Below, in pieces: positions 27,637 to 42,146 of a stretch of 64,000 nt of DNA; position 1 is the first letter of the stretch, and the number at the start of each line of letters is the position of its first letter. The DNA lies in contig JBFYSV010000347.1 in assembly GCA_041301185.1 (NCBI GenBank), positions 1,697 through 65,696 of the forward strand, read 5' to 3'. Source of the DNA: Anaerolineae bacterium (GTDB taxonomy: Bacteria > Chloroflexota > Anaerolineae > Anaerolineales > UBA4823). The notes below the pieces were generated by a model. The model ran no database searches. It was given only the letters and a program-made list of their open reading frames with translations, and was not told where the DNA came from. Made by a program: the position numbers and the translations under genes.

Positions 27637-28851
27637 TTGTTAACTAATCTGTCAGATATCCATTCCAGATACTATAACAAACGCGTCAGCCTGGATTTAA
27701 TCCGTTTTACGCCCGGGGGGATATCACGGGCAGATCTGGCACGCAGCCTGGCAATTACTCGTTCCGCAGTCACCACCATCGTTAATGACTTGATAGAGGC
27801 CAGTATCGTCCGCGAGGCTGAAGATGGTCCAACAACCGGTGGGCGGCGACCGATCTTATTGGAGCTGAACCCTCAGCGCGGCAAATTTGTGGGGGTCGAC
27901 ATCGGGGCAACTCACGTTGGGTTTTTGGTCACCGATTTTGCGTGCGGCGTCCTGCATGAGGTTGAGAAATCCTTTGATATATCTGTATCTCCTGATCTTG
28001 GCTTAAACCAAATCGACCGGTATTTACGGGAAATGCTCACAGGGCTTTCCCTTGATCTGAGTGAAATATTGGTGATTGGGGTTGGGATCCCGGGTCCGGT
28101 AGAATCTGACCAAGGCCTGGTTATTTCACCTCCGCTCATGCCGGGTTGGGAAAATTACCCGATCCGCGCCCATCTGGAGGAGATGTGGAAGCTGCCAGTC
28201 AGCCTCAACAATGATGCTGAGCTGGGTGCCTTGGGGGAATGGGCATATGGAGCCGGACGAGGGGAGCGCCACCTGGCATATATTAAAGTTGGATCAGGAA
28301 TCGGAGCAGGCCTGTTAATTGATGGTAAGATTTTTCGCGGTGCAACTGGCTCCGCTGGCGAGATTGGTCATACAACCATCAGGGAGGATGGCCCTTTGTG
28401 CACTTGCGGCAACCATGGTTGCCTGGAGACACTCGCTGGGGGAAAAGCAATCGCTAATCGAGCGAACGAAGCTGTGCAATCCGGCCGGCGCACAATGATG
28501 GCTTCCATCGAGCCAGTCAACCACATCACAGCTCGAGACGTGGCGGATGCAGCCCGCCGAGGGGATTTGGTTGCACAGCAGATTATGAAAGATGCGGGAA
28601 CATACCTGGGTATCGCGATTGCCAGCCTGGTCAATCTATTCAATCCGAATATGGTCGTTGTTGGGGGTGGCATAGCGCAGATGGGCGATCTTCTATTACA
28701 GCCTATCCGCCAGGTGGTGCAACAGCGCAGCTTGCGCTCTTCAGTGCAAGCGGTGCGAATCAACACTTCGGTCCTTGGTCGCCGGTCCAGTAGTATGGGA
28801 GCGGTCGTCCAGGCACAAAACACTTTTCTAGACCATTGGACTAAGGAGTAG
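27637..28851 (+). CDS. ROK-family transcriptional regulator (N-terminal wHTH + sugar-kinase fold)
   Basis: GISRADLARSLAITRSAVTTIVNDL, GVDIGATH and the zinc motif CTCGNHGCLE. No in-frame ATG near the 5' end, so a TTG start is assumed. Confidence 0.85.
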   Translation: MLTNLSDIHSRYYNKRVSLDLIRFTPGGISRADLARSLAITRSAVTTIVNDLIEASIVREAEDGPTTGGRRPILLELNPQRGKFVGVDIGATHVGFLVTDFACGVLHEVEKSFDISVSPDLGLNQIDRYLREMLTGLSLDLSEILVIGVGIPGPVESDQGLVISPPLMPGWENYPIRAHLEEMWKLPVSLNNDAELGALGEWAYGAGRGERHLAYIKVGSGIGAGLLIDGKIFRGATGSAGEIGHTTIREDGPLCTCGNHGCLETLAGGKAIANRANEAVQSGRRTMMASIEPVNHITARDVADAARRGDLVAQQIMKDAGTYLGIAIASLVNLFNPNMVVVGGGIAQMGDLLLQPIRQVVQQRSLRSSVQAVRINTSVLGRRSSSMGAVVQAQNTFLDHWTKE

Positions 28852-29002
28852 AGGATTATAATGTTGAACAAGGAGGTTATACCATTTGGAGAATTGAGAG
28901 AACACGCCCTATATGTTTAATCACAATGATCAACCACAAAATCCCATTGTCAGGTTCGCCTGACGAAACACACACTTCCTAAGGTTAAGGAGAAGGTTAC
29001 AA

Positions 29003-31399
29003 ATGAGTAAGAAACTATGGACATTGTTTAGCTTGCTTCTGGTTTCAGCGATGATCCTGACCGCCTGTGGCGGACAGGCCACTGAAGCGCCAGTAGCTAC
29101 CGAAGCTCCGGCAGAGGAAGCACCTGCTGCCACCGAAGCACCCGTTGAAGAAGAGGCACCCTCCCTCTCTGGAAACATCACCCTGTGGCACTCGCTTAAA
29201 GAAGGCGAGATCGAGGGTATGACTGCAGCTGCTGAGCTTTTCTCGGCTGCCAACCCAGATGTGACATTCGACCAGCTCTTCATCCCGTTTGATGACCTGC
29301 GCGGTAAATACGAGACCGCGGTTGGATCCGGCGAGGGTCCGTGCCTGTTGATCGGCGCGGCGGACTGGGGTCCGGCGATGTACAATGCTGACCTGGTGAT
29401 GGATGTCAGCCAGTTTGCTGAGCTGGAATTCCTGCAGGGCATTAACCAGGCTGCATTGGCCTCCGTGCGCTACAAGGATGCCATCATCGGTCTGCCTCTG
29501 GGACTGAAGGGCGTGGTCATGTTCCGCAACGCCAGCATCATTCCTGAAGCCCCGGCTGATTTTGACGACCTGGTGGCGAAGGCACAGGCTGCGACCGCTG
29601 GCGATGTGGTTGGCGCCAACCTGGAGCGTGGCTTCTTCTTCTCCGCCGGGCACCTGGCGGGGCAGGGTGGTCAGCTCATGGATACCGATGGCAACCCGAC
29701 CTTCAATGACGATACGGGTATTGCCTGGGCAGAACTGTTGAACCGCTTCACCGAAGCTGGTCCGGCTGAGTACTACACCGATAACGATGTCAACCTGTTC
29801 AAAGCTAACGCAGCCGGTATGATCATCGACGGCACCTGGAACATGAACGACCTGGCGGCTGCCATCGGTGAAGAGAACCTGCAGGTTGACCCGTGGCCGG
29901 CGGGGATGTCGGGTTATGTCCAGAACGACAACCTTTTTATGGGCGCCAACACCACAGAAGAAGACCAGGCTGCATGCTGGGGCTTTATGGAGTACCTCCT
30001 GACTCAAGAAGCCCAGGCAGTGATTGCTGAGAACAACACCGGCTTCTTGCCGGCAGCGCTGGGTGTGTCTGTCCCGGATCGCCTGCGCCAGCAGGCAGTG
30101 GCAGCTTTTGAAGGCGGTACAGCCTTCCCGGTGATCCCCGAGATGGGCGCTTACTGGGGTCCGATGGATACCGCCCTGAAGTCCGTTTTTGACGAGAGCG
30201 GCGATCCGGCGTTTGCACTGGCTCAGGCAGAGAACTCGGTCAATGCCGCTGTGGCCGAAATTCGCGGCGAAGCAGCTCCTGAGGCTGAAGTACTCGGCAC
30301 AATCACCCTGTGGCACTCGCTGAAAGAAGGCGAGATCGAGGGTCTGACTGCGGCTGCTGAACTGTTCGCAGAGAGAAATCCTGGGATTACCTTCGACCAG
30401 CTCTTCGTCCCGTTCGAAGACCTGCGCGCCAAGTACGAGACCGCAGTAGCTTCGGGTGAAGGCCCGACCCTGCTCATCGGCGCGGCGGACTGGGGTCCGG
30501 CGTTCTACAATGCCGAGTTGGTGACCGACCTGACTCCCTTTGCCAGCACTGCCTTCCTGACTTCAATCAACCAGGCGGCTCTGGCATCTACCCAGTACAA
30601 GGGCGCGCTGGTAGGCCTGCCTTTGGGACTTAAGGGTGTGGTGATGTACCGCAACGCCAGCATTGTAGCTGAACCCCCCACTGATTTCGATGACTTGGTG
30701 GCCAAGGCACAGGCTGCGACCGCCGGTGATGTGGTCGGCGCCAGCCTGGAGCGCGGTCAATTCTTTGCATTTGGACACCTATCTGGACTTGGCGGACAAT
30801 TGATGACCCCTGAAGGCGACCCGGCATTCAATACCGAAGAAGGTGTTGCTTGGCTCGAGATGCTGAATCGCTTCACAGAAGCTGGCCCGGCAGAGTTCAA
30901 TGTCGATAACGATGTCAACCTGTTCAAGGCTGGCGCGGCTGGCATCATCATCGACGGCACCTGGAACCTGAACGATCTGGCGACAGCCATCGGCGAAGAT
31001 AACTTGAAGGTAGATGTCTGGCCGGCGGGGATGTCGGGTTACGTGCAGAACGACAATATCTACATGGGCGCCAATGCTGTGGACAACGATCAGGCAGCCA
31101 CCTGGGCTTTCATGAAGTTCCTGCTCACCCCAGATGCCCAGAAGCTGATTGCTGACAACAATAAGGGCTATATCCCCTCCGTGGCGGGTGTCGAAGTGCC
31201 TGACCGGCTGCGCCAGGAAGCCGTGGCAGCTTTCGCAGCTGGCACAGCTTTCCCGGTGATCCCCGAGATGAACGCATACTGGGGCCCGATGGAGACAGCT
31301 ATGAAATTAGTCTTTGACCAGGGCTCGGACCCGACGACCGCTTTAGGCGATGCTGAGACTGCGATCAACGAGGCTTTGCCTGCGATCCGTGGGCAATAA
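29003..31399 (+). CDS. Lipoprotein made of two tandem ABC sugar (maltodextrin-type) solute-binding domains
   Basis: Signal peptide + lipobox LTAC, an EAP-rich linker, then two roughly 370-aa family-1 SBP domains that are highly similar to each other (see the repeat feature). Confidence 0.9.
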   Translation: MSKKLWTLFSLLLVSAMILTACGGQATEAPVATEAPAEEAPAATEAPVEEEAPSLSGNITLWHSLKEGEIEGMTAAAELFSAANPDVTFDQLFIPFDDLRGKYETAVGSGEGPCLLIGAADWGPAMYNADLVMDVSQFAELEFLQGINQAALASVRYKDAIIGLPLGLKGVVMFRNASIIPEAPADFDDLVAKAQAATAGDVVGANLERGFFFSAGHLAGQGGQLMDTDGNPTFNDDTGIAWAELLNRFTEAGPAEYYTDNDVNLFKANAAGMIIDGTWNMNDLAAAIGEENLQVDPWPAGMSGYVQNDNLFMGANTTEEDQAACWGFMEYLLTQEAQAVIAENNTGFLPAALGVSVPDRLRQQAVAAFEGGTAFPVIPEMGAYWGPMDTALKSVFDESGDPAFALAQAENSVNAAVAEIRGEAAPEAEVLGTITLWHSLKEGEIEGLTAAAELFAERNPGITFDQLFVPFEDLRAKYETAVASGEGPTLLIGAADWGPAFYNAELVTDLTPFASTAFLTSINQAALASTQYKGALVGLPLGLKGVVMYRNASIVAEPPTDFDDLVAKAQAATAGDVVGASLERGQFFAFGHLSGLGGQLMTPEGDPAFNTEEGVAWLEMLNRFTEAGPAEFNVDNDVNLFKAGAAGIIIDGTWNLNDLATAIGEDNLKVDVWPAGMSGYVQNDNIYMGANAVDNDQAATWAFMKFLLTPDAQKLIADNNKGYIPSVAGVEVPDRLRQEAVAAFAAGTAFPVIPEMNAYWGPMETAMKLVFDQGSDPTTALGDAETAINEALPAIRGQ
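29171..31396 (+). repeat. Intragenic tandem duplication, period 1125 nt (375 codons), giving the two SBP domains
   Basis: The unit starting at 29171 and the unit starting at 30296 differ at 4 of their first 48 nt. 62 of the first 76 aa are identical (GNITLWHSLKEGEIEG... vs GTITLWHSLKEGEIEG...). Confidence 0.9.
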
Positions 31400-31440
31400 C
31401 AGCCCTGGATTATCCGTCGTGATTGGCTACTGATTACCTG

Positions 31441-31472
31441 CGCGGGTGGAAGGGATTTCCCTTCCACCCGCG
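31441..31472 (+). terminator. Strong stem-loop after the binding-protein gene (partial terminator or mRNA stabiliser)
   Basis: CGCGGGTGGAAGGGA / TCCCTTCCACCCGCG, 15-bp arms. The downstream U-tract is poor. Confidence 0.5.
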
Positions 31473-31536
31473 TTCGTAATATAATTAAGCTATTCACCGT
31501 TGAGACCCAATCTATCCATCATACAGGAGAGCGACT

Positions 31537-32589
31537 ATGGCCCAACAGACCCTGCCTTCTGCAACTCCAACCGATCTAAAGCTTGTCAGGCGTCAAGAGT
31601 TCAAGCACCGCCTGAAAGTCTCTCGCACTGCATGGTTATATATTCTGCCTTCCGGGATCCTGATGCTGATTATCTCTTTCTGGCCTCAGATTTACCAGGT
31701 GGGGATGTCTTTCACGGATTACCGGATTACAAACCTGCGTTTCAACCTGTTCAGGCCTGAAACCTGGGAGAAATACGCCCCTACGGTCATCGGTCTGGAA
31801 AACTATATCAAAGTTTTGACAAGCAATCTGGCAATCGAGAATTATAATTTCGTTCGTTTGCTGTTATTCAATATCGTCTGGACCCTCAGTAATATCATTT
31901 TTCATGTCGCGTTCGGCGTGCTCATCGCCCTGGCGTTGAACAGTAAGAACCTGATCGGTCGGAAATTCTATCGAGTGATGTTTGTACTCCCCTGGGCGAT
32001 CCCAGGTTATATTGCAGTACAAACCTGGCGCAATATGTACGATCCGCGCTTTGGGGCGATCAACCTGCTATTGGTAAAAGTAAATGATTTCTTAGGCACC
32101 AGTTTCCCAACCGACACGCGCTGGTTGGAAGTAGCTCACCAGTCAGGATTTTTATATTTTCTTCCGGTAGCCTTCTTTGCGGTCTTACTCGCCAACATCT
32201 GGTTGGGTTGGCCGTTCATGATGGTGGTTGCCACGGGTGCGTTGCAGTCAATTCCCAGCGAGCTTTACGAAGCGGCAGATATTGATGGCGCAAGTAGCTG
32301 GCAGAAATTTTGGAATGTGACTGTGCCGCTGATCCGCCCGGCGATGGTGCCGGCGATTATGTTGGGTACGATCTGGACTTTCAACCAGTTTAATGTCATT
32401 TACTTTATCTCTCGAGGCGGACCGTTTGGTCGTACCGAAATTCTGGTTACCCAGGCTTTCAAGCTGGTGTACGAGCAGCGCCTGTATGGCGTTGCGGCTG
32501 CTTTCAGCATCGTGGTGTTCTTTGTCTTACTGATAATCACCCTGATCAACAACCGTGTGACTCGTGCGACGGAGGCCTACAATGCCTAG
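31537..32589 (+). CDS. ABC sugar transporter permease (MalF/CUT1 type)
   Basis: Six TM segments. EAA loop: YEAADIDGASSWQKFWNVTVPLIRP. Confidence 0.9.
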   Translation: MAQQTLPSATPTDLKLVRRQEFKHRLKVSRTAWLYILPSGILMLIISFWPQIYQVGMSFTDYRITNLRFNLFRPETWEKYAPTVIGLENYIKVLTSNLAIENYNFVRLLLFNIVWTLSNIIFHVAFGVLIALALNSKNLIGRKFYRVMFVLPWAIPGYIAVQTWRNMYDPRFGAINLLLVKVNDFLGTSFPTDTRWLEVAHQSGFLYFLPVAFFAVLLANIWLGWPFMMVVATGALQSIPSELYEAADIDGASSWQKFWNVTVPLIRPAMVPAIMLGTIWTFNQFNVIYFISRGGPFGRTEILVTQAFKLVYEQRLYGVAAAFSIVVFFVLLIITLINNRVTRATEAYNA

Positions 32590-33481
32590 GAAAACCAAAG
32601 AAATTCTCAAACAAATCGGCTTGCAGATCTTTTTACTGACTGTGCTCGCCGCGGTGTTGTTCCCCTTCCTGTGGATTTTCTCAATGGCGCTCGACCCGCG
32701 CAATATCGACAAGCCACTTGAACTAACGATCTTCCCCCCTGGCGCGTCGCTGGATGCTTTTCGCAGGGTGCTATTAGAACCCTGGGGATTGTTGTGCAAA
32801 AACCCCAGCCTGCCTGAGACGTGCATGACCTTTGGCAAGTTGCTCGTGAACAGCCTGATTGTGTCATTAGGTGTTTCGGTGTTCGCGGTAGTTTTAGGTG
32901 CCTCAGCGGCATACGCCTTTTCCCGCTTCTCGTTTATTGGACGTCAGGCAGGTATGCTTGGATTCATTATTCTTCTGATGTTGCCTGCCAGCGCAACCCT
33001 GGCGCCTCTTTATGTATTACTGAGCCAGATCCGGATTGGAGGTGAAGCCCTGCGCGCCAGTCTGCTGGGATTGTCGATTGCTTATGCGGCAGGCACATTA
33101 CCTTTCGCGGTCTGGAATTTGAAAGGCTACTTTGATACCGTGCCAAAGGAATTGGAGGAGGCGGCGCTGATCGACGGCGCGACAGTAACCCAGACCTTCA
33201 TCCGTGTGATCATCCCGCTCTCGGTGCCCGCGTTGGCAGTGACGATCCTGTTCAGCTTTATGACAGGCTGGACGGAATTCATCCTGGCTTGGAGCTTCCT
33301 GGAAGATCCAGCCCGGTTCACCCTGGCGATGGCATTGCGCTCAATGGTAGGGCAGTTCTCCACGCCCTGGTCGGATTTCTCTGCCATGTCGATCCTGATG
33401 AGCGTGCCGATCATTCTACTCTTCTTCCTGCTGCAGCGCTATCTGGTCTCTGGTTTGACCGTTGGCGGTGTAAAGGGCTAA
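32582..33481 (+). CDS. ABC sugar transporter permease (MalG/CUT1 type)
   Basis: EAA loop EEAALIDGATVTQTFIRVIIPLSVP. ATG 32582 overlaps the upstream stop by 8 nt; the ORF track starts at 32564. Confidence 0.9.
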   Translation: MPRKTKEILKQIGLQIFLLTVLAAVLFPFLWIFSMALDPRNIDKPLELTIFPPGASLDAFRRVLLEPWGLLCKNPSLPETCMTFGKLLVNSLIVSLGVSVFAVVLGASAAYAFSRFSFIGRQAGMLGFIILLMLPASATLAPLYVLLSQIRIGGEALRASLLGLSIAYAAGTLPFAVWNLKGYFDTVPKELEEAALIDGATVTQTFIRVIIPLSVPALAVTILFSFMTGWTEFILAWSFLEDPARFTLAMALRSMVGQFSTPWSDFSAMSILMSVPIILLFFLLQRYLVSGLTVGGVKG

Positions 33482-33501
33482 TAACCGTTTATCAGTAAAA
33501 T

Positions 33502-35181
33502 ATGCTCAAGCGATTATCCAAGGCGGTGCCTGGGCTTTTGGTTGTCATGTTTGTGTTGTCAGCATGCTCCCAGGCATCGCCTGCTCCCGTGCAAACAGAA
33601 TCACTTAGGCTTTCCCCAACGCCAGGCATAACGCCTCCACAAGAAACCACCCAGGGGTCTGCGCCGACGGAGAGCGTCCAGCCAACCCCGGCAGCTACTC
33701 TGATCCCATACGAGACCCCGGACTGGTTCGATGGCGATATCCTTTACGAAATCTTCGTGCGGTCGTTTGCCGATTCAGATGGGGACGGCATCGGGGATTT
33801 GAATGGGATCACAGAACGATTAGATTATCTCCAGACTTTGGGAGTTGACACAGTCTGGTTAATGCCGGTCTACCCCTCTCCCTCAGATCATGGCTATGAT
33901 GTAAGCGATTATTTCGCGGTCAATCCACAATACGGCAGCCTCGAAGATCTACAGGCCCTGGTACAGGCTGTTCATGAGCGCGATATGCGCATTATCCTCG
34001 ATTTTGTACCTTCTCATCTCTCCAACCAGAATCCGATTTTTCAAGACGCTTTCAAGAATCCAGAATCAAAATATAGCGATTGGTTCGTCTGGACCAATGA
34101 AGCGCATAGTACCTATGCCGGGTTTGCGGATAATGAGGAGATGCCGCGCTTCAATCATTACAATCCCGAAGTGGTGGCTTACCTGGCGGAGGCGGCACGC
34201 TACTGGCTGGATCTGGACGGCGACGGTGATCTGACAGATGGTGTGGATGGTTTCCGGGTAGATAATATCACTTTTCCCCCGCAGGAGTTCCTGGTTGCCT
34301 TGCGCCAGGAGGTCAAATCTGCCAACCCCCAAGCCTTGCTGTTGGGAGAAGCCTGGGTGCATAACCCATCGGATATGAGTCGCTTCTATCCGGACCAATT
34401 CGATGCTTTGTTTGATTTCCCCTTGTATGAGATCATGCAGGGCAACCAGGACTCGAATGGGGATGGATTACTGGCTGGCAAGAGTTTTCCGGTGCTGATC
34501 ACCAGTCTGATGAAAGAGCAAGCCGCACGTTTTCCCGAGGAGGCAATTGCGCTGCGGTTTTTCAGCAATCATGATACCAACCGGATTGCAACTGAGCTAG
34601 CCGGTGATCCGGCTCGGCAGCGCTTAGCAATTGCTCTATTGGCAGCTTATCCAGGCCCGATGTTAGTTTATTATGGTGAAGAAATTGGCATGCCTGGACA
34701 AAAAGGCGGACCTCCAGATTACGATAACTACCGACGTGAGCCAATGGATTGGTACGCTGCCGAGGAAGGTCCTGGGCAGGCGAGTTGGTTCAAACCGGAG
34801 GATGGCTGGAACCAGCCGGGAGATGGTATCTCGGTTGAAGAGCAGGATTCTGACCCGGAATCGCTACTGGGCTACTATCGAAATGCACTGGCGATCCGCC
34901 AGCAAAATGCAGCCCTCCACCAGGGAGATTTTGCTATCTTGCAGCTGGATGCCAGCGGACCGGGAGCTTGGGCTTTCGTTCGCAGCCAAGGCGAGGACAG
35001 GGTGGTTGCTCTATTCAATTTCTCTGACCAGGATTTGGACGTAACCATCCCGGAGTTTCCATTTTCTGCGGGTGGTTTGGTTGATCTGTTATCCGGCACA
35101 GAATTCCCCCCAGTCGAGATGAGCCAGCCGTACACCTTGAGATTACCAGCTGCATCGGCGGTGTGGCTGTCAGCCAATTGA
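33502..35181 (+). CDS. Secreted GH13 alpha-amylase-family lipoprotein
   Basis: Lipobox LSAC, a T/P-rich linker, and GH13 regions DGDGIGDL, GVDTVWLMP, DGFRVDN, GEAW and FSNHD. Confidence 0.9.
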   Translation: MLKRLSKAVPGLLVVMFVLSACSQASPAPVQTESLRLSPTPGITPPQETTQGSAPTESVQPTPAATLIPYETPDWFDGDILYEIFVRSFADSDGDGIGDLNGITERLDYLQTLGVDTVWLMPVYPSPSDHGYDVSDYFAVNPQYGSLEDLQALVQAVHERDMRIILDFVPSHLSNQNPIFQDAFKNPESKYSDWFVWTNEAHSTYAGFADNEEMPRFNHYNPEVVAYLAEAARYWLDLDGDGDLTDGVDGFRVDNITFPPQEFLVALRQEVKSANPQALLLGEAWVHNPSDMSRFYPDQFDALFDFPLYEIMQGNQDSNGDGLLAGKSFPVLITSLMKEQAARFPEEAIALRFFSNHDTNRIATELAGDPARQRLAIALLAAYPGPMLVYYGEEIGMPGQKGGPPDYDNYRREPMDWYAAEEGPGQASWFKPEDGWNQPGDGISVEEQDSDPESLLGYYRNALAIRQQNAALHQGDFAILQLDASGPGAWAFVRSQGEDRVVALFNFSDQDLDVTIPEFPFSAGGLVDLLSGTEFPPVEMSQPYTLRLPAASAVWLSAN

Positions 35182-35249: not shown

Positions 35250-36329
35250 ATGAAGAAATCAAAAACTCAAGTATCCAAGGGTTCGCAGCAGTCGCCTCAA
35301 ATCGAGGGGCAGCGGGTGACCATCATCTGGAAGGGGAGCAGTCCGCCACAGCTGGTGGGGGATTTTACCGATTGGGAAAGGGGAGGGCGGATTGACCTGG
35401 TCAGAGCTGGTCGAAACGTATGGGTGCACGAAATGGAACTGCCAGACGACGCTTATATGGAATATAGTTTTATCGATGGTGACGAGCGCATCCCTGACCC
35501 AATGAATCCAAACCTGACGCCGGATGGTTTTGGGCACAAGAACAACTATATTTATATGCATGGCGCTGCGCCAACCGATCTGACCAGGCGCGTGCCTGGG
35601 GTGGCTTATGGCACGCTAAAGACTTTCCAGGTAAAAACCTGGAAATTGATCGCAGGGAATTTGCGGCGTGTCCATCTTTACCAGCCGTCCACACCACAGG
35701 CTTGCCCGCTCCTGGTTGTGTGGGATGGGCGCGAATATTTGCGGCGAGCAAGATTACCCTATATCTTGGATAACCTGGTCCATCAGAAACGCATTCGCCC
35801 CGTAGCGTTGGCAATGGTAGAAAACAGCCAGTCGGGACGGATGATGGAATATTCGTGTAGTGATAGCACGCTGGTGTTCTTGCAGCATATCGTATTGCCT
35901 CTAGCACAAGAAGAGTTGAACCTGGTGGATATCTCCAACCAGCCCGGCGCGTACGGTGTATTGGGAGCTTCCATGGGCGGGCTGATGGCGCTATATACAG
36001 GTCTCAGGCTCTCGCATATATTTGGACACGTTCTCAGCCAATCCGGGGGTTTTACCCTTGCCGAAGGTGAAACCGTTGTGTACGAGCTGGTCAGGCGAGG
36101 TGATCTCAGAGCAATAAAGATCTGGATGAATGTGGGACTCTATGATTTTGTGAGTTTGTTGGCAGCCAACCGGGAGATGTACCCCTTGTTATCCAGCCGG
36201 GGATATGATGTAAGCTACCGGGAGTATCATGGCGGGCACAATTATCCCTCCTGGCGGAATGACCTGTGGCGCGGCTTGGAACATCATTTCGGTGAGCGTA
36301 ATTCCCCGGAGTCTGATCTACCCACGTAA
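35250..36329 (+). CDS. Esterase-family alpha/beta hydrolase with an N-terminal E-set/CBM48-like domain
   Basis: N-terminus VTIIWKGSSPPQLVGDFTDWE...MELPDDAYMEYSF. Nucleophile elbow GASMGGLMAL. C-terminal YHGGHN. Confidence 0.75.
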   Translation: MKKSKTQVSKGSQQSPQIEGQRVTIIWKGSSPPQLVGDFTDWERGGRIDLVRAGRNVWVHEMELPDDAYMEYSFIDGDERIPDPMNPNLTPDGFGHKNNYIYMHGAAPTDLTRRVPGVAYGTLKTFQVKTWKLIAGNLRRVHLYQPSTPQACPLLVVWDGREYLRRARLPYILDNLVHQKRIRPVALAMVENSQSGRMMEYSCSDSTLVFLQHIVLPLAQEELNLVDISNQPGAYGVLGASMGGLMALYTGLRLSHIFGHVLSQSGGFTLAEGETVVYELVRRGDLRAIKIWMNVGLYDFVSLLAANREMYPLLSSRGYDVSYREYHGGHNYPSWRNDLWRGLEHHFGERNSPESDLPT

Positions 36330-36372: not shown

Positions 36373-38526
36373 ATGATGCGGCGCATATTTTTATGGCTGG
36401 CGATCTTATGTGTGGTTGGGCTTGCCTGGGGGTTAAGGTTGCGCGCATTGGAGCAGCTACCCATCGACTATGATGAAGACGATTACCTTGGGGCGGCGAT
36501 TCATTATGCGCAGGCGCTCCGCGAGCGGGATCTGGCGGAGATTATCAACTATGATTACAACTATGAGCATCCCCCATTAACAAAACTGGCGTACGGGCTG
36601 GCGATCTTGCCGCTCACACCCGCTTCACCCATCATCGAGAGACCTTCCAGTGCCCCAATTGTTTCTAGCCTGCCCGAGCCGCATTTTCAGACCGCTCGCA
36701 AGCTTTCGATTATCCTTGGCACACTCCAGGTCTTAGTTCTGGCTTTGATCGATCCTCTAGCTGGTCTGTTACTGGCGATCAATACCTGGCAGATCAAGTA
36801 CACCAGCCAGATCATGCTGGAGCCGCTCCCTTCACTAACCAGTATTTTGGCTGTGATCTTATATATTAAATCTGGGAGGAGATGGAATGTCTGGCTATTC
36901 CTGTCTACTCTGGCGCTGGGTATCACTGTGGCGGCAAAATTTCCATATGGCATAGTGGGAGTAGCCATTGCTGTCCACTGGTTGATGGAGGAATACCCAG
37001 CCCAGGAGCGCCTCAAGGGTTTGAAACTTATTCGGTGGCTTGCACCTGTGGCGGGATTTGCCATTCTGGCAGCGATCACTTTCTTCGCAACCAACCCGCG
37101 TTTGTGGACTGATCCGCTCAGCCGGCTTGGAGCAGCGATAACCTTCCATGGGGATTACGCTACCAGCGATTATGTCCGCGGGGCAGGCTTGCCTCCCTGG
37201 CAGCCGTTCGTTTGGCTCTTCCAGTCTGTACCCTGGCATCCCGGGGTATTCCTGGTCTCTATGGATGTATTGATCACCCTGATGGCAATCCTCGGGTATA
37301 AACAGATGTGGGAACGCCAGCGAGTATTTGCCCTGTGGCTGGTGATTGCGCTTGGTTTCTTACTGGTTTGGCCAACCAAGTGGCCGCAGTATATTTTGAT
37401 TCTGACCGTCCCCCTTAGCTTGGCATCTGCCTACGGATTTAGGGCATCGATCTGGCAACCTTTAGTAAACTGGATCAAGCGGGATAAACATCATACCCGT
37501 GCCCGCATTGCTGGCTCACCGTTGAAGATCGGCTGGCAGGAACTGCGCAAAGCACTTCCCTGGCTGATCCCTGGGCTGGTTGTCCTGGGATTTATTACGG
37601 TCTATCCGATGGTGTTCCAGGGAGCGATGGCGCTGACCGATTTCGGATCGTCCGCCATTCGGGATGGCTTGAGTGGTGGGGTGTGGCGAGAAACCTGGAA
37701 AGGGTTTTCCGGACAGGTTGAACCGGTTACAGCGGCTTTTTTCCAGCGCTCGATGTCCAAGGAGGTGCACTACGCTGGGACTACATTGCTCCGGCAGCTT
37801 ATCGGCGGGGCAGCCGCTGACTACCTAGTCTTTGGGATACTTTGGACTTTCCTGGCAATAGCGTCCCAGACTGCACTGGGGGTCAGTGTGGCGTTATTGC
37901 TAGACCGGGCTGGTGTTCTTTTCAAGGGCTGGTGGCGAGCGATTTATATCCTACCCTGGGCGATCCCGGAATTCGTGGGTGGTTTGATGTGGGCACAGAT
38001 ATTTGACCCGCGGTTTGGCTGGTTCAACCAGGCGGGCAAAACCTGGTACGAGACTGCAGATTATCCAGGAGCAGCTAATTTCATCACCCAATGGCAATCT
38101 AATCCAACCTACGCATTATTGGTTCTGCTGATTACTGCTACCTGGTGCGGGTTTCCCTTTATGATGCTGGCAGCATCAGCGGGTCTGAAACTGATCCCCG
38201 TGGACTTGCACGATGCGGCTGAGATCGATGGCGCTGGCGGCTGGAAGAAATTCCGCTTTGTCATCTGGCCTTTGTTGGTGCCATTGTTGTTACCAGCAGT
38301 CATCATTCGGGCTATCTTTTCATTCAACCAGTTTTATCTCTTTCTTGTCTTAGAGCCACCATTCCCCCTGGCCACCTTTTCGGTTACATCATTTTTCTTC
38401 TTTGACCAGCTTGGACAGTACGGAGCATCGGCTGCCATCAATATCTTCACAATTTTAGTGTTGATTGCGCTGATTTTATGGTTCAACCAATGGAGTAAAG
38501 CCGCTGAAGGGTATACCTATGCGTAA
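36373..38526 (+). CDS. Fusion protein: N-terminal PMT/ArnT-like GT-C glycosyltransferase membrane domain + C-terminal MalF-type ABC permease
   Basis: aa 1 to about 375: multi-TM, with first-loop DYDEDDY and EHPPLTKLAYGL (an HPPL-K motif as in GT39/PMT_2). aa from about 385 are collinear with the permease at 31537, including EAA loop HDAAEIDGAGGWKKFRFVIWPLLVP. Confidence 0.8.
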   Translation: MMRRIFLWLAILCVVGLAWGLRLRALEQLPIDYDEDDYLGAAIHYAQALRERDLAEIINYDYNYEHPPLTKLAYGLAILPLTPASPIIERPSSAPIVSSLPEPHFQTARKLSIILGTLQVLVLALIDPLAGLLLAINTWQIKYTSQIMLEPLPSLTSILAVILYIKSGRRWNVWLFLSTLALGITVAAKFPYGIVGVAIAVHWLMEEYPAQERLKGLKLIRWLAPVAGFAILAAITFFATNPRLWTDPLSRLGAAITFHGDYATSDYVRGAGLPPWQPFVWLFQSVPWHPGVFLVSMDVLITLMAILGYKQMWERQRVFALWLVIALGFLLVWPTKWPQYILILTVPLSLASAYGFRASIWQPLVNWIKRDKHHTRARIAGSPLKIGWQELRKALPWLIPGLVVLGFITVYPMVFQGAMALTDFGSSAIRDGLSGGVWRETWKGFSGQVEPVTAAFFQRSMSKEVHYAGTTLLRQLIGGAAADYLVFGILWTFLAIASQTALGVSVALLLDRAGVLFKGWWRAIYILPWAIPEFVGGLMWAQIFDPRFGWFNQAGKTWYETADYPGAANFITQWQSNPTYALLVLLITATWCGFPFMMLAASAGLKLIPVDLHDAAEIDGAGGWKKFRFVIWPLLVPLLLPAVIIRAIFSFNQFYLFLVLEPPFPLATFSVTSFFFFDQLGQYGASAAINIFTILVLIALILWFNQWSKAAEGYTYA

Positions 38527-39364
38527 GATCTTGTGGTGGCAGCAAATGGTCTACCAGTTGCTCTTGCTGGCAGTAGGGCTGTTTGCCTTGTTACCTGTGT
38601 GGGGAATGCTGCGGATTGCTTTAGATGGAGCGATCAAGGGGGCGCCAACCGAATTCCGGCTATGGCCAGAAGAATTCACCCTGGCTGTGTTCCAGCATGT
38701 ATGGGAAAATCCCTCGCAAACCCTTTCGATCCCCGGTTTGCTGAAAAACAGCATGATTGTCGCGGGCGGTGCAGCCATCTTTTCGGTCGTCTTCGGGGCA
38801 AGCATGGCTTATGCCTTTGCGCGTTTTCGTTTCCCTGGTCGGAAAACGGGGTTGTTTGCCCTTCTGGTTGGAGCGATGCTGCCGCCGGTTGCATTAATGA
38901 CTCCGTTGTATGTTTTACTTTCTGCACTTGGGTTACGAACTTCATTGTTGGGGCTGATGATTGTATATGCCGCTTTCTCGATGGTTTTCTGCATCTGGAG
39001 TATGCGGGCATCGTTTCAAGCGGTGCCGCTCGAGCTGGAAGAGGCATCCTATCTGGACGGCGCTACGCATTGGGTGACTTTCTTGAAAGTATCCTTGCCC
39101 CTGGCTTTACCGTCGATCGCGGTTGCGGCTCTGCTGGCGTTTTTATTGGGTTACACTGAATTTGCAATTGGTTGGTTGTTTGTGGAAAGCAGCGATAATG
39201 TTACAATGGCTATGGCTGTGTCTGGGATGATGCGCCAGTCTGGTGCAGAATGGGGTAACCTATCTGCGCTTGCATTGTTGATGAGCATCCCAGTGGTGAT
39301 CATTTTTATGATTTTATACCGATATTTGATGCGAGGCATGCTGGCAGGCCGGCTGGAAGATTGA
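38519..39364 (+). CDS. ABC sugar transporter permease (MalG/CUT1 type)
   Basis: EAA loop EEASYLDGATHWVTFLKVSLPLALP. 8-nt overlap with the upstream gene, the same junction as at 32582. Confidence 0.9.
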   Translation: MRKILWWQQMVYQLLLLAVGLFALLPVWGMLRIALDGAIKGAPTEFRLWPEEFTLAVFQHVWENPSQTLSIPGLLKNSMIVAGGAAIFSVVFGASMAYAFARFRFPGRKTGLFALLVGAMLPPVALMTPLYVLLSALGLRTSLLGLMIVYAAFSMVFCIWSMRASFQAVPLELEEASYLDGATHWVTFLKVSLPLALPSIAVAALLAFLLGYTEFAIGWLFVESSDNVTMAMAVSGMMRQSGAEWGNLSALALLMSIPVVIIFMILYRYLMRGMLAGRLED

Positions 39365-39404
39365 CAGCCCGATCGCATGCTTGGCGAGAGAGAAATTACC
39401 CGGC

Positions 39405-40733
39405 ATGGATAAACCGCAATTCCACCACCAACTCAATGCCAGCGTTTTGGTTATGCTCAGCCTGGTATTGACTGCTTGTAGTATTTGGAATAGCCCAACT
39501 CCAACGCCATTACCCACGCCATCGCCAACCCTTCGTGCGGCAGCCACCGCGATCCCTACCCCAACCGAAACCGTGGTAAGCGGCACGGTTAGCATCTGGC
39601 ACGCCCTAGATGAGCAACAATTCCCCTGGTTGTTGAAAGCGATTGCAGAGTTCCAATCCCAATATCCCAATGTACAGTTTGATGTCTCGTTTATCCCTGC
39701 ACTTGACCTGAAAACGAGTTTTGAGGTCGCCAGTTCGGAGGGCAGACAGCCGATGATCCTGATCGGACCGGGTAGTTGGGGACCAGAATTCTTCGATCGC
39801 GGCTGGTTGGCAGATCTTTCCGGGTTAGCATCCGCTGAGTTGACCGGCAACCTGAACCCGGCTGCACTTGGGGCAGCCCAATACGACGGGGCGCTGATCG
39901 GATTGCCGCTTCATATCCAGGGTGTGGTCCTGTATCGCAATTCAAGCATCATTATTGAGCAAGCCAATACTTTGGAAAAAATGCTTTCCATGGCGCGGCA
40001 GGCAAATCGGGATGATGTGCGCGGGGCATATTTGGAGCGCAGCTTTTTTTACTCTGGCGGGCACCTGTCTGGCTTGGGTGGCAGGCTGATGGATGAGGAT
40101 GGATATCCGGCATTCAACGATGAGTTTGGTCTGGAGTGGATCGGACTCTTAAGAGAGTTCGAGCTGATGGGACCGACCGAATTCTTTGGCGATAATGATT
40201 TACAGGCTTTCACAGAAAACCATGCTGGATATATTATTGAAAGCACCCGCATTCGCAGCTCCCTGAGAGACGCGCTTGGCACGATGAATATTGCCATTGA
40301 TCCCTGGCCGATCATGGATCAGGGTATCCTGTCCGGTTATGTTGAGTCTGAGAACATCTACCTGACTCCAGGGGCACTGGACCAGCTCGCAATGCCTGCC
40401 TGGAGATTTGTGGAATCTTTATTTTCAGCGGAGATTGTGACGGAGCTGGCAGCTGCCGGGATGATCCCCTCGATCCGTGCATCGGTTGCCCTTGCGCCGG
40501 GAAGTGGAATTTCAATCAATGATGACCTGACCAAGGAGGCGATGATTGCACTTGAGGATGGCACCACGTATCCGGTGGTGCCAGAAATGGTTTATTATCC
40601 GCCACAAATGAACATCGCCTTGCAATCGATATTTTTTGATAATGCCGAACCCGCCGAAGCCTTGCAAGCTGCGGCAGACGCAATCAGCGGGTCGATAATC
40701 TCGATCGAAAGCACACCAACTTCTCTACCTTGA
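39405..40733 (+). CDS. ABC sugar solute-binding lipoprotein with a Thr/Pro-rich linker
   Basis: Lipobox LTAC, linker SPTPTPLPTPSPT...IPTPTET, and an SBP core (VSIWHALDE...ILIGPGSWGPEFF) distantly paralogous to 29003. The ORF opens at TTG 39381. Confidence 0.85.
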   Translation: MDKPQFHHQLNASVLVMLSLVLTACSIWNSPTPTPLPTPSPTLRAAATAIPTPTETVVSGTVSIWHALDEQQFPWLLKAIAEFQSQYPNVQFDVSFIPALDLKTSFEVASSEGRQPMILIGPGSWGPEFFDRGWLADLSGLASAELTGNLNPAALGAAQYDGALIGLPLHIQGVVLYRNSSIIIEQANTLEKMLSMARQANRDDVRGAYLERSFFYSGGHLSGLGGRLMDEDGYPAFNDEFGLEWIGLLREFELMGPTEFFGDNDLQAFTENHAGYIIESTRIRSSLRDALGTMNIAIDPWPIMDQGILSGYVESENIYLTPGALDQLAMPAWRFVESLFSAEIVTELAAAGMIPSIRASVALAPGSGISINDDLTKEAMIALEDGTTYPVVPEMVYYPPQMNIALQSIFFDNAEPAEALQAAADAISGSIISIESTPTSLP

Positions 40734-40748
40734 AACATTGGGGTATGT

Positions 40749-42146
40749 ATGACTGTACCGTATTGGGTGAAAGACGCAATTTTCTACCAGATTTTTCCGG
40801 ATCGTTTTGAAAATGGGGATCATAGCAATGATCCAGCCAATGTCCAACCCTGGGATGCCCCTCCATCCGGCGGGCACTTCCAGGGAGGCGATTTGCGCGG
40901 CATCATCAAGCGGCTGGATTACCTGCTCGAGCTGGGGATCAATGCGATCTACCTGAATCCCATTTTCCAGGCGACCTCGAATCATCGCTATAACACCAGC
41001 GATTATTTCAAAATCGATCCCAAGCTGGGTGATCTCAATGATTTCCATGCCCTGTTGGATGTAGCCCATCGAAATGGGATTCGCGTAATCTTAGATGGTG
41101 TTTTTAACCATTGCGGGCGTGGTTTTTTTGCCTTTGTGGACCTGCTCGAAAACCAGGTAAACTCTCCGTATTGCAACTGGTTCCACCCACTTTCATACCC
41201 GGTCGATGCCTACTCGCCTGGAGATGCAAAGGATTATCTCGCCTGGTGGGGGATCAAGAGCTTGCCGAAATTCAATACGAATGAACCTGCAGTGAGGCGC
41301 TATCTCCTGGATATTGCTCGTTATTGGATAGAGCAGGGCGCAGATGGTTGGCGGCTAGATGTTCCCAACGAGATCGATGATGACACTTTTTGGGCAGAAT
41401 TCCGGCATGAGGTTAAGTCTGTCAACCAGGATGCCTACCTGGTTGGCGAGATCTGGACGGCGGATCAGCGCTGGGTGGGAGATGGGCATTTCGATGGATT
41501 GATGAACTATCCTTTTCGGGATTGCATGTTGCATGTGCTGCAATCCCACCATTACGATACCTCTGCCTGTACTGCCAGGCTGGAGTCGTTGCTGCAATTA
41601 TATCCCCGTGAGAATACTTATGCCATGTACGTGCCGCTTGGTTCACATGATACGGAAAGGATCATGACCAAGCTGGAGGGGAGCCTGGAGATGGTTAAGT
41701 TAGCGTTCCTATTCCAGTTTGCTTTCCCCGGAGCACCGGCGGTGTACTATGGCGACGAGATTGGATTGCATGGTGGGAAAGACCCGGAATGCAGGGGGAC
41801 ATTTCCATGGGATGAAGGCAGGTGGAATCAAGAAATGCTTAGCTGGGTAAAACGCCTGATTTCTCTTCGGAAACGACATGCAGTGCTCCGGCGCGGCAAT
41901 TTCACTCATGTTTTAAGCGACGACCGCCGGCGAGCTTATGCCTTTTCGCGCCAGCTTGGCGATGAAAGTGTTCTCGTTGTCATCAACGCCAGCCCAACCA
42001 AGCGTAATCTTCGACTGCCGGTAAGTGGATTGAATTACATGGAAGGGCAAGTCTTGCGAGATTTGCTGGGCAAGAGCGAATACCTGGTAAGCGGAGGAAA
42101 TGTCTCGATCAGTCTGCCGCCCAGGAGCGGAATCTGGCTGGTTTGA
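40749..42146 (+). CDS. Cytoplasmic GH13 enzyme (cyclomaltodextrinase / neopullulanase / alpha-glucosidase-like)
   Basis: No signal peptide. GGDLRGI, INAIYLNPIF, DGVFNH, GWRLDVPNE, GEIW and GSHD. Confidence 0.9.
   Translation: MTVPYWVKDAIFYQIFPDRFENGDHSNDPANVQPWDAPPSGGHFQGGDLRGIIKRLDYLLELGINAIYLNPIFQATSNHRYNTSDYFKIDPKLGDLNDFHALLDVAHRNGIRVILDGVFNHCGRGFFAFVDLLENQVNSPYCNWFHPLSYPVDAYSPGDAKDYLAWWGIKSLPKFNTNEPAVRRYLLDIARYWIEQGADGWRLDVPNEIDDDTFWAEFRHEVKSVNQDAYLVGEIWTADQRWVGDGHFDGLMNYPFRDCMLHVLQSHHYDTSACTARLESLLQLYPRENTYAMYVPLGSHDTERIMTKLEGSLEMVKLAFLFQFAFPGAPAVYYGDEIGLHGGKDPECRGTFPWDEGRWNQEMLSWVKRLISLRKRHAVLRRGNFTHVLSDDRRRAYAFSRQLGDESVLVVINASPTKRNLRLPVSGLNYMEGQVLRDLLGKSEYLVSGGNVSISLPPRSGIWLV

Follow-up and report, generated by a model that had tools for sequence, protein, structure and literature searches.

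A PMT-like GT-C glycosyltransferase domain fused to a MalF-type ABC permease in Chloroflexota

Introduction

Sugar importers of the CUT1 type, such as MalFGK2 and LpqY-SugABC, contain a MalF-like permease subunit, and in E. coli MalF this subunit carries an N-terminal addition of two helices and the P2 loop. Covalent partners on the periplasmic face of a type-I importer permease have a precedent in OpuA and GlnPQ, in which substrate-binding domains are fused to the TMD.

Members of the GT-C superfamily share a polytopic membrane fold, in which a conserved N-terminal helix bundle is combined with a long first extracytoplasmic loop that bears short helices and an acidic catalytic motif, and their sugar donors are linked to a lipid phosphate. 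The GT-C enzymes ArnT, Emb/Aft and the YfhO type transfer sugars from polyprenyl-phosphate carriers to non-protein acceptors. The substrate of ArnT is lipid A phosphate; we know of no lipid A synthesis in Chloroflexota of this kind. PMT enzymes (GT39) include yeast Pmt1, Pmt2 and Pmt4 and, in Actinobacteria, Rv1002c and the S. coelicolor Pmt. To our knowledge, work on bacterial PMT-type protein O-glycosylation has been confined almost entirely to Actinobacteria, whose enzyme stands free. PstS and further solute-binding lipoproteins, as well as an ABC permease, are glycosylated by the Pmt of S. coelicolor, and in Mycobacterium tuberculosis Pmt acts in a coupled manner with Sec export (PMC6593405).

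Here we analyze a 64,000-nucleotide stretch of Anaerolineae DNA (the window) in which an original prediction had seen one 717-codon ORF joining a GT-C-like module to a MalF-type permease. It had also supposed this architecture to be undescribed, and our full-text literature searches indeed returned no description of a GT-C domain combined with an ABC permease. The module fused in OpuA and GlnPQ is a binding domain, whereas here it is a polytopic glycosyltransferase; in the place of the two helices and P2 loop of E. coli MalF, this protein has what looks like a complete 377-aa enzyme.

Results

The ORF is uninterrupted on the + strand. Its product runs from a GT-C glycosyltransferase domain through a cytoplasmic linker to a MalF-type ABC permease domain, with the following features:

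36373..38526, + strand: whole fusion gene, uninterrupted ATG-to-TAA ORF of 717 codons plus stop
36373..37503, + strand: predicted GT-C (PMT-like) glycosyltransferase domain, aa 1-377 (AlphaFold, Foldseek, profile searches, hhalign)
36466..36486, + strand: acidic, putatively catalytic D32-Y-D34-E35-D-D-Y38 motif, first extracytoplasmic loop (hhalign, conservation)
36565..36585, + strand: E65-H66-P-P-L-T-K71, corresponding to the PMT 'VHPPLGK' motif (profile alignment and hhalign)
36697..36699, + strand: R109, equivalent of Pmt1 R138 (hhalign; 114/114)
36796..36822, + strand: K142-Y-T-S-Q-I-M-L-E150 motif, TM3/4, outer end (profile alignment and hhalign)
36937..36939, + strand: K189, equivalent of Pmt1 K234 and CtPmt4 K244 (profile alignment and hhalign; 114/114)
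37369..37392, + strand: W333-P-T-K336-W-P-Q-Y340 motif, TM9-TM10, outer face (conservation)
37504..37521, + strand: short basic linker, flexible and cytoplasmic, that connects the long TM10 helix to permease TM1, aa 378-383 (pLDDT dip)
37522..38523, + strand: MalF/SugA-type type-I ABC importer TMD with a six-helix core, aa 384-717 (PF00528, Foldseek)
38206..38283, + strand: EAA coupling loop, the ABC ATPase docking site, aa 612-637 (sequence and conservation)

The fused gene is real and has been conserved. At 90% identity the window protein falls into a cluster whose 15 members were drawn from NCBI, ENA, JGI and Logan assemblies; a length of 716-718 aa is shared by 13 of the 15. Both halves share one open frame in 71 of 83 genome-derived loci and in 63 of 80 metagenome loci, and of 173 related loci that we fetched, 135 carry the fusion without interruption, so that orthologous loci are mostly fused rather than split into two genes. 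At E<=1e-30 the fusion has 737 homologues, the best 120 of which are nearly all 705-755 aa, and hundreds of proteins of ~715 aa show the same uninterrupted fusion. A few related loci are split, with a 4-nt overlap between the GT-C and permease genes (L002/L072) or with apparent frameshifts (L033, L056), but an assembly or frameshift artefact uniting two adjacent genes has a negligible chance of being right and was ruled out by the 13 near-identical copies in independent assemblies, the one-frame loci and the homologue lengths. All 80 genome loci belong to Chloroflexota, and relatives of the PMT-like family occur in 393 species-representative genomes. A metagenome scan seeded with stand-alone proteins again recovered mostly fused loci.

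We asked what the N-terminal half is. Scanned directly against Pfam and NCBIfam, the window protein gave no glycosyltransferase match (nothing to Pfam PMT at E<=1 and nothing to PMT_2), so placing aa 1-376 among GT-C enzymes required homologue scans, profiles and structure. AlphaFold modeled aa 1-377 with ten transmembrane helices and both termini in the cytoplasm (pLDDT 95.6, pTM 0.93). When this model was compared to the PDB with Foldseek, the best 32 matches were all GT-C enzymes (probability 0.96-1.00), headed by Pmt4, Pmt1 and Pmt2 (CtPmt4 9i5k_A, E 3e-5, TMq 0.63); ArnT (5f15, E 1e-3, TMq 0.55), ALG9, STT3/PglB, AftA and Emb followed closely. The profile searches were narrower: PMTs were the sole matches of the family profile among PDB sequences (E 3.4e-5 for Pmt4, and 1.3e-4), and hhalign of the family profile to PMT TM1-7, using PMT segments taken from the PDB profile-search output, gave a probability of 97.1% (E 7e-11, 175 columns). 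A profile of the first 112 residues found no GT-C match among PDB sequences; its one Rieske match (E 2.3) was dismissed as chance, and the DE-motif alignment described below came from hhalign instead.

Homologues reached Pfam more readily than the window protein did. PMT (PF02366) was matched by 25 of 77 homologues, eight of which scored 25.1-29.0 bits (cutoff 22.7); the fused proteins P0139 and P0170 are among those over the gathering score. PMT_2 (PF13231) was touched by 20 of the 77, at a maximum of about 22.7 bits against a gathering threshold of 26.1. Thus the predicted GT-C identity of the N-terminal part held up in both structure and profile-profile alignment, and of the GT39, PMT_2 and ArnT-like relationships proposed for it, GT39 proved nearest, while neither the window protein nor its homologues passed PMT_2. 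The Pfam check originally suggested gave PMT matches for some homologues but none for the window protein itself. Taken together, these results indicate that aa 1-377 almost certainly adopt a GT-C/PMT-like fold.

This domain is closest to PMT among GT-C enzymes, yet it is not a canonical PMT, for it has no MIR domain, a different C-terminal module and no Pfam match of its own. It has ten helices where PMT has 11. Only three helices follow the large loop, and this three-helix module is unrelated to the four-helix PMT_4TMC, the source of R666, F669 and H672 in Pmt4: hhalign of the family profile to the PMT C-terminal module, with its RQxFLHHYLP motif, gave a probability of 0.1% and no similarity. 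A search for a MIR domain, present in eukaryotic PMTs, gave no match, and the loop in its position (aa 240-297) measures about 58 residues. In related paralogues a beta-rich extracytoplasmic domain occupies the N-terminus; it gave a weak galactose-binding-like match in one case and could bind glycans.

Next to these differences the putative active site is strongly conserved. We scored residue conservation in 114 fused homologues averaging 50% identity. The acidic motif lies directly after TM1 (aa 32-38), in the first extracytoplasmic loop as predicted, and its D34-E35 pair aligned with Pmt1 D77-E78, the PMT DE motif; D32, D34 and Y38 were found in 114/114 homologues and E35 in 113/114. An acidic first-loop motif followed by an aromatic residue, and an E-[H/K]-P-P-L type motif, are also features of ArnT. 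The second motif lies within EHPPLTKLAYGL (aa 65-76), and its H66 aligned with Pmt1 H98 (H66 and P67, 114/114). In CtPmt4 the His of the HPP motif, H105, contacts dolichol-phosphate, and K244, like Pmt1 K234, contacts the donor phosphate (PMC12705809). Pmt1 R138, the counterpart of R109, is cited as essential in PMC8698208. E150 (113/114) aligned with the Asp of the PMT 'ILLD' motif (Pmt1 D189, CtPmt4 D197), a proposed metal ligand, and K142, Y143 and Q146 of the same motif were invariant (114/114). The W333-Y340 motif is family-specific, nothing in the PMT C-terminal module corresponding to it; W333, T335, W337 and Q339 were conserved in 114/114 and K336 in 112/114. We would guess that K336 is a candidate second phosphate ligand, a role that must stay at the level of a guess because, with no similarity to the PMT C-terminal module, equivalents of R666, F669 and H672 cannot be mapped. 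Finally, the His that contacts the acceptor Thr in PMT (Pmt1 H80, CtPmt4 H87) aligned with Asp37 (Val or Ile in 7/114), so that acceptor chemistry may differ.

As judged by these alignments, the PMT-type catalytic and donor-binding residues D34-E35, H66, R109, E150 and K189 are present. The conserved polar and invariant residues cluster in loops that are extracellular according to the AlphaFold model and the positive-inside rule, as in PMT, whose active site faces outward. The GT-C module is thus probably a catalytically active, outward-facing enzyme.

The C-terminal half is a MalF-type permease. BPD_transp_1 (PF00528) matched aa 503-707 with 54.9 bits (cutoff 26.4), and the NCBIfam MalF equivalog NF008232 matched with E 2.7e-23 and 82.5 bits, under its 392-bit cutoff. 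This half superposed on MalF and SugA with TMt 0.84-0.86 (MalF 9nxc_H, E 3.4e-9; SugA 8hpr_A, TMt 0.86). It is collinear with the stand-alone permease at 31537-32589, as had been noticed (29% identity, E 1e-44), and the pairing of TM1 segments on which that observation was based falls inside the alignment. Going by sequence, this half is a MalF-type paralogue and no orthologue of E. coli MalF. The expected EAA-type loop, DAAEIDGAGGWKKFRFVIWPLLVP, has five positions invariant in the 114 homologues (D619, G620, A621, P633, P637); with this loop intact, the permease half is predicted to be functional.

In the full-length model (pLDDT 91.2, pTM 0.89) the linker pLDDT falls to 59-70. The spacing from Y340 to W397 has a median of 58 residues and is exactly 58 in 45 of the 114 homologues, with a median of 8 K+R against 2 D+E. 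A basic, cytoplasmic linker means that the GT-C and permease modules can lie next to each other in the membrane, and the pTM of 0.89, taken by itself, suggests that they may be held in a fixed arrangement.

We then examined the gene neighborhood, which comprises the following:

27637..35181, + strand: upstream half of the sugar locus (Pfam, ORF scan), made up of the next five genes
27637-28851, + strand: ROK regulator
29003-31399, + strand: 798-aa double binding protein
31537-32589, + strand: canonical MalF'
32564-33481, + strand: MalG'
33502-35181, + strand: secreted GH13 lipoprotein with a Thr/Pro linker
35250..36329, + strand: esterase (PF00756), immediately 5' of the fusion (Pfam and synteny)
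38519..39364, + strand: MalG-type partner permease (PF00528; MalG E 1e-36)
39381..40733, + strand: solute-binding lipoprotein with lipobox LTAC and a Thr/Pro tether (SBP_bac_8, SBP_bac_1)
40749..42146, + strand: cytoplasmic GH13 enzyme, nearest to cyclomaltodextrinase / maltodextrin glucosidase (383 bits against an equivalog cutoff of 540)

The window locus is a ROK-regulated alpha-glucan (maltodextrin-type) utilization locus. The MalG ATG overlaps the fusion stop by 8 nt and the two genes are translationally coupled; a MalG gene also lies 3' of the fusion in fused loci with sufficient downstream sequence. The esterase gene adjoins the fusion in other loci as well (L001, L004-L006, L011, L039, L054, L075, L088), the order ROK-SBP-F'-G'-fusion-G is repeated in L084, and MalF' and the double binding protein lie 5' of the fusion in 39/87 and 33/87 loci, respectively. 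An operon of the fusion with MalG, a linker-bearing binding lipoprotein and a GH13 enzyme had been proposed: all three follow the fusion here, but in most fused loci no binding-protein gene lies downstream, and one like that at 39381 is present in only 5 of 88. As in known CUT1 systems, the locus thus combines an EAA loop, a MalG partner, a binding lipoprotein and GH13 neighbors; unlike them, it has no ABC ATPase gene among the window ORFs scanned, and a shared MsiK-type ATPase encoded elsewhere is presumed to serve the transporter. The same scan found no gene for a polyprenyl-phosphate-sugar synthase (GT2).

The nearby binding proteins are all lipoproteins with Thr/Pro/Ala/Glu tethers, that of the 39381-40733 protein reading CSIWNSPTPTPLPTPSPT...IPTPTET. 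We also confirmed the Thr/Pro linkers listed earlier for the secreted proteins at 24119, 33502, 49752 and 50502. Secreted proteins of the window commonly bear such tethers, so their presence on the fusion's neighbors is not specific.

GT-C proteins of the family also exist on their own. ABC-importer genes, often for binding proteins, adjoin 8 of 12 distinct stand-alone loci. In L001 and L088-90 the permease has been deleted and an intact stand-alone GT-C is kept beside a binding-protein gene; in L046 and L171-173 the stand-alone GT-C comes last in canonical SBP-F'-G' operons; in L083 its gene overlaps that of a 792-aa binding protein by 4 nt; and in L085/L087 it follows a PhnD-type importer. 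No importer genes lie near the stand-alone copies of L086, L116, L130 and L152.

Discussion

The conserved fusion suggests a transporter that glycosylates some acceptor on the outer side of the membrane, where it is itself exposed. Our preferred reading, which we hold tentatively, is that the 36373-38526 product is one polypeptide with two working modules whose GT-C module glycosylates Thr/Pro tethers. The module would take a polyprenyl-phosphate hexose, the type of donor also used by ArnT, from the outer leaflet and, with D34 as the base, transfer the sugar to Ser/Thr hydroxyls in the Thr/Pro-rich tethers of lipoproteins that reach the transporter. Solute-binding lipoproteins docking on MalF-MalG would be the first candidate acceptors, with the secreted GH13 lipoprotein as a possible further one. 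With the enzyme tethered to the permease, substrates would be chosen by docking and not by Sec coupling, which serves the M. tuberculosis Pmt, and the glycan could make the tether stiffer or protease-proof.

The nearness to PMT, the gene neighborhoods of the stand-alone copies and the actinobacterial precedent make Ser/Thr on binding-protein tethers a candidate acceptor, though one that we regard with some reserve. Asp37 in place of the acceptor-contacting His, the dissimilarity to PMT_4TMC and the missing MIR domain count against it, as do the window protein's lack of a Pfam or NCBIfam glycosyltransferase match, the lack of a GT2 gene among the window ORFs scanned, the commonness of Thr/Pro tethers in the window, the rarity of downstream binding-protein genes and the four importer-free stand-alone loci.

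Some of the same observations would fit an active GT-C enzyme that uses a polyprenyl-phosphate sugar and a non-protein acceptor: a membrane glycolipid, an envelope polysaccharide or the transported oligosaccharide. ArnT, ALG9, STT3/PglB, AftA and Emb stand close behind PMT in the fold search, 20 of 77 homologues touch PMT_2, the acceptor His and C-terminal module depart from PMT, paralogues carry the beta-rich domain, and the locus is given over to alpha-glucan use. However, sequence profiles match PMT only, outscoring GT-C enzymes that act on lipids or glycans (the PMT_2 matches were weaker than the PMT matches and sub-cutoff), stand-alone copies adjoin binding-protein rather than envelope-biosynthesis genes, and no envelope glycan genes lie within the window. 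We consider such an acceptor possible but unlikely.

The enzyme might also O-glycosylate Thr/Pro-linker exoproteins of many kinds across the cell, joined to the permease only for the sake of co-expression, membrane insertion or stability and with no preference for the transporter's own binding protein. Mucin-like linkers on four unrelated secreted proteins of the window, stand-alone proteins about as common as fused ones (141 versus 148 fetched) and the stand-alone loci without an importer link all fit. Fusion, linker length and MalG pairing are nevertheless tightly kept in >130 loci, the full-length model has a defined two-domain arrangement, and importer genes flank most distinct stand-alone loci, which makes this reading improbable.

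It is very improbable that the GT-C domain lacks catalytic activity and serves as a scaffold that docks the binding protein or holds its lipid anchor, comparable to the MalF P2 loop, as the original prediction had offered by way of alternative. The failure of the window protein to reach the Pfam PMT and PMT_2 thresholds, the absence of MIR and of the PMT C-terminal module and the rigid attachment to the permease in the model could be read in this way. We disfavor it because the catalytic-site residues (DE motif, HPP His, R109, E150 and K189) are invariant or 113/114 at ~50% mean identity and because intact stand-alone copies outlive loss of the permease; moreover, the invariant residues gather in loops that face outward, where an active site would be expected.

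There is likewise only a slim chance that transfer and transport are coupled on one molecule, with the GT-C site at the periplasmic mouth of MalF-MalG transferring a lipid-linked hexose to the incoming alpha-glucan oligosaccharide, or gated by binding-protein docking and the ATPase cycle. If so, the fusion would be a single glycosylate-and-import or dock-and-glycosylate machine instead of two independent activities.

Because its proteins are named only 'ABC-type sugar transport system permease', a whole glycosyltransferase family has been hidden in the databases. The results reveal a compact PMT-like family spread over Chloroflexota, with the permease of an ABC sugar importer attached in the form that prevails among the sampled loci. 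If the enzyme glycosylates docking partners, structural and mechanistic studies would gain an attractive subject in a PMT-type enzyme reduced to about 377 aa and lacking MIR. It would also explain the fate of the long Thr/Pro tethers on Chloroflexota lipoproteins and represent a new route of substrate selection, by transporter docking.

A conserved gene joins a GT-C domain to a MalF-type permease

We analyzed the gene predicted to encode a GT-C domain (aa 1-377), a short linker (aa 378-383), and a MalF-type permease (aa 384-717). The features of the gene are as follows.

36373-38526, forward strand: fusion ORF, uninterrupted from ATG to TAA, 717 codons
aa 32-38 of the fusion: acidic motif DYDEDDY
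aa 65-76 of the fusion: EHPPLTKLAYGL

Both peptides had been quoted in the original prediction, and every feature it quoted was found in the fusion and its neighbours. The C-terminal half and the stand-alone permease at 31537-32589 are collinear (29% identity, E 1e-44); the proposed pairing of TM1 is part of this alignment, and the claimed EAA-type loop is present. The claimed neighbours are present as well: a MalG-type gene that overlaps the fusion stop by 8 nt at its ATG, a Thr/Pro-tethered binding lipoprotein, and a GH13 gene. In Pfam, the full protein matched only BPD_transp_1 (aa 503-707); aa 1-376 alone had no match in Pfam or NCBIfam.

The two-gene fusion is genuine. Its 90%-identity cluster contains 15 members from NCBI, ENA, JGI, and Logan assemblies, 13 of them 716-718 aa long. 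A full-length search returned 737 homologues at E<=1e-30, and the best 120 were nearly all 705-755 aa. Scanning one genome per GTDB species, we found a relative encoded in 393 stretches. The best 80 of these were all from Chloroflexota (Anaerolineae, Thermoflexales, Caldilinea, Ca. Amarolinea, Promineifilaceae, Limnocylindrales, and Bellilinea). Among the first 83 loci fetched, both halves shared one open frame in 71, were split or frameshifted in 5, and had no permease behind the GT-C domain in 7, 3 of which lay at a contig end. Metagenome loci (n=80) comprised 63 fused and 8 stand-alone genes and 9 cut by a contig edge. The junction is tightly kept: across 114 fused homologues the spacing from Y340 to W397 had a median of 58 residues (exactly 58 in 45, range 47-74). 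The linker is basic (median K+R 8 versus D+E 2), matching the expectation for a cytoplasmic connector. The two-module membrane protein is real and conserved.

The permease half retains its coupling loop

A full-length AlphaFold model built from the 114-sequence alignment had a pLDDT of 91.2 and a pTM of 0.89, and confidence dropped solely at aa 378-383. The two modules may be packed in a fixed arrangement, a reading whose sole basis is this pTM. For the C-terminal half of the model, structural matches were MalF (9nxc_H, E 3e-9) and mycobacterial SugA (TMt 0.84-0.86). The residues of the EAA loop do not vary among the 114 homologues, so docking of an ATPase is expected; no ABC ATPase gene was found among the scanned ORFs of the window. 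The permease module looks functional.

The N-terminal half is a divergent relative of protein O-mannosyltransferases

The N-terminal domain was modeled from a 77-homologue alignment (pLDDT 95.6, pTM 0.93) as ten transmembrane helices with a long first outer loop bearing short helices. In a Foldseek search of the PDB, the 32 best matches were all GT-C glycosyltransferases. CtPmt4 ranked first (E 3e-5, TMq 0.63), followed by ScPmt4 and Pmt1/Pmt2, then ArnT, ALG9, STT3, PglB, AftA, and Emb. Against PDB sequences, the family profile matched only PMTs (Pmt4, E 3.4e-5; CtPmt4, E 1.3e-4). Among the 77 homologues, 25 matched Pfam PMT and 20 PMT_2; eight that we rescanned reached 25.1-29.0 bits, above the PMT gathering cutoff of 22.7, and two of these eight are fused proteins. 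We also aligned the true TM1-7 segments of Pmt1, Pmt2, CtPmt4, and ScPmt4, taken from the PDB search output, and compared them with the family profile by hhalign, which gave a probability of 97.1% (E 7e-11, 175 columns).

The domain departs from PMTs in four respects. By hhalign, the C-terminal third of the domain had no detectable similarity to the four-helix C-terminal module of PMTs (probability 0.1%). The fusion lacks a MIR domain, and the acceptor-contacting His of PMTs is replaced by Asp. PMTs have 11 helices whereas the GT-C domain has 10, which would leave its C-terminus in the cytoplasm, as required for running on into permease TM1. Because of these four departures, the family is a compact, divergent sister of GT39 and not a canonical member.

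The hhalign alignment paired residues of the two families as follows.

Residues of the fusion and their Pmt1 counterparts
Y33: F76
D34-E35: D77-E78, catalytic DE motif
D37: H80
H66: H98
R109: R138
E150: D189
K189: K234

In the Pmt4 structure, dolichol-phosphate was assigned to the equivalents of H98 and K234, a possible metal site to that of D189, and the acceptor Thr to F83, D84, and H87 (PMC12705809). PMT activity requires R138 and the DE motif (PMC8698208). Among the 114 fused homologues (mean identity 50%), D32, D34, Y38, H66, P67, R109, K142, Y143, Q146, K189, W245, W276, Q277, W333, T335, W337, and Q339 are present in all, and E35 and E150 in 113. This pattern indicates strong purifying selection on the predicted catalytic and donor-binding residues of the PMT-like module. 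Taken with the positive-inside rule, the model would place most of these conserved residues in outward-facing loops, and the active site is predicted to face outward. The GT-C enzyme is probably active in catalysis.

The fusion lies in an alpha-glucan locus

The genes around the fusion form one ROK-headed alpha-glucan locus. In order, they encode ROK, a 798-aa double binding protein, the permeases MalF' and MalG', a GH13 lipoprotein that is secreted, and an esterase; the fusion comes next, and behind it MalG, a second binding lipoprotein, and finally a cytoplasmic GH13. This last enzyme has cyclomaltodextrinase and maltodextrin glucosidase as its nearest matches, with scores under their cutoffs. 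A like order (ROK-SBP-F'-G'-fusion-G) is found in related locus L084. Where the flanking sequence sufficed, 39 of 87 loci have a canonical MalF' upstream and 33 of 87 have a double binding protein there; downstream, a GH13 is present in 20 of 88, and a binding protein like the window's second one is rare (5 of 88). Individual genes showed further features.

29003-31399, forward strand: 798-aa binding lipoprotein, about twice normal size
35250-36329, forward strand: PF00756 esterase, enterochelin-esterase-like, with an N-terminal extension of about 140 aa
39381-40733, forward strand: second binding lipoprotein, whose tether contains SPTPTPLPTPSPT
45391-49613, forward strand: 980-aa ORF combining a DAO-type FAD oxidoreductase, a BFD-like [2Fe-2S] domain, and FAD_binding_2, then a CCG/4Fe-4S protein

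The best Pfam matches of the 798-aa protein, SBP_bac_8 and SBP_bac_1, span aa 446-731 in two matched stretches each. Relatives of it, 676-803 aa long, are found repeatedly upstream of GT-C genes; the large binding protein there has Peripla_BP_4 plus SBP_bac_8 in L083 and two SBP domains in L171. Synteny between the esterase and the fusion extends to several related loci, where the esterase lies directly upstream or a few genes downstream. For the second binding lipoprotein, the listed TTG start yields an odd N-terminus, LAREKLPGMDKPQF..., and a normal lipoprotein signal peptide follows the Met at codon 9 (nt 39405); to judge from this, the Met is more likely to be the start. Outside the locus, 45391-49613 resembles a fused system of the anaerobic glycerol-3-phosphate-dehydrogenase type.

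The GT-C gene also occurs unfused, usually beside importer genes

Searched exhaustively with the profile, 1.84 billion representatives yielded 349 clusters at E<=1e-30 and 1223 at E<=1e-3. The fetched proteins included 148 with GT-C plus permease, 141 stand-alone GT-C proteins of about 370-420 aa, and 12 with an N-terminal extracytoplasmic beta-rich region and extra helices ahead of the GT-C core. In this third architecture (P0310, P0341, P0354, P0373, and P0357), a signal-anchor precedes a beta-rich region of about 150-200 aa, with a weak galactose-binding-like match in one protein, and the acidic motif is relaxed to xDE/xDD.

L001 and L088-90, which are most closely related to the window locus (56% and 65% identity), retain the Esterase-GT-C-SBP-GH13 order with an intact GT-C gene and have lost the permease genes: the deletion is complete in L001 (7001-9561), and a 122-aa remnant persists in L088 (2386-5462), L089, and L090. 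The L088-90 arrangement is present on seven contigs. L046, L171, L172, and L173 have the order SBP-F'-G'-GT-C, and in L083 the GT-C gene shares a 4-nt overlap with the gene for a 792-aa binding protein. In L085 and L087 (4163-9146), a phosphonate-type importer (PhnD-like binding protein, ATPase, and 610-aa double permease) is followed directly by a stand-alone GT-C gene, so the association with ABC importers extends beyond sugar systems. L002 and L072 carry a split form, the GT-C gene overlapping the permease gene by 4 nt. Judging from these loci, the enzyme can apparently work unfused but mostly stays beside ABC-importer genes, binding-protein genes above all. No importer genes were found near the stand-alone GT-C at L086, L116, L130, and L152. 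Immediately upstream of the fused gene, L078 (4826-6025) and L080 (4922-5959) encode a stand-alone paralogue 38-43% identical to the window GT-C domain; by analogy with Pmt1-Pmt2, these pairs hint at hetero-oligomers.

Candidate acceptors

The enzyme would take a hexose off a polyprenyl-phosphate sugar and attach it to Ser/Thr of Thr/Pro lipoprotein tethers, and the acceptors would be those lipoproteins that dock on the transporter. The nearby binding proteins are all lipoproteins with Thr/Pro tethers. In S. coelicolor, PstS, several solute-binding lipoproteins, and an ABC permease carry glycans added by Pmt (PMC6593405). However, the His-to-Asp change and the C-terminal module unlike that of PMTs argue against a tether acceptor, as do the four stand-alone loci without importer context and the abundance of Thr/Pro linkers on this window's secreted proteins. 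We tentatively propose binding-protein tethers as the main acceptor; a lipid or glycan acceptor seems somewhat less probable still. The predicted fusion is confirmed, and its original interpretation is supported in part. Three further proteins of the window, with very long mucin-like Thr/Pro linkers, are plausible O-glycosylation substrates.

24119-26482, reverse strand: 787-aa membrane-anchored protein without a Pfam match, with about 80 residues of TLTPT-type repeats
49752-50483 and 50502-51206, both forward strand: adjacent Germane-domain lipoproteins

Full-text literature searches turned up no account of an ABC permease carrying a GT-C or PMT domain, and none describing PMT-type glycosylation in Chloroflexota. 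Databases name the family only "ABC-type sugar transport system permease subunit"; the name of one JGI entry also carries "ArnT-like glycosyltransferase". The GT-C and permease modules are each known: what is new is their combination, together with a compact PMT-like family.
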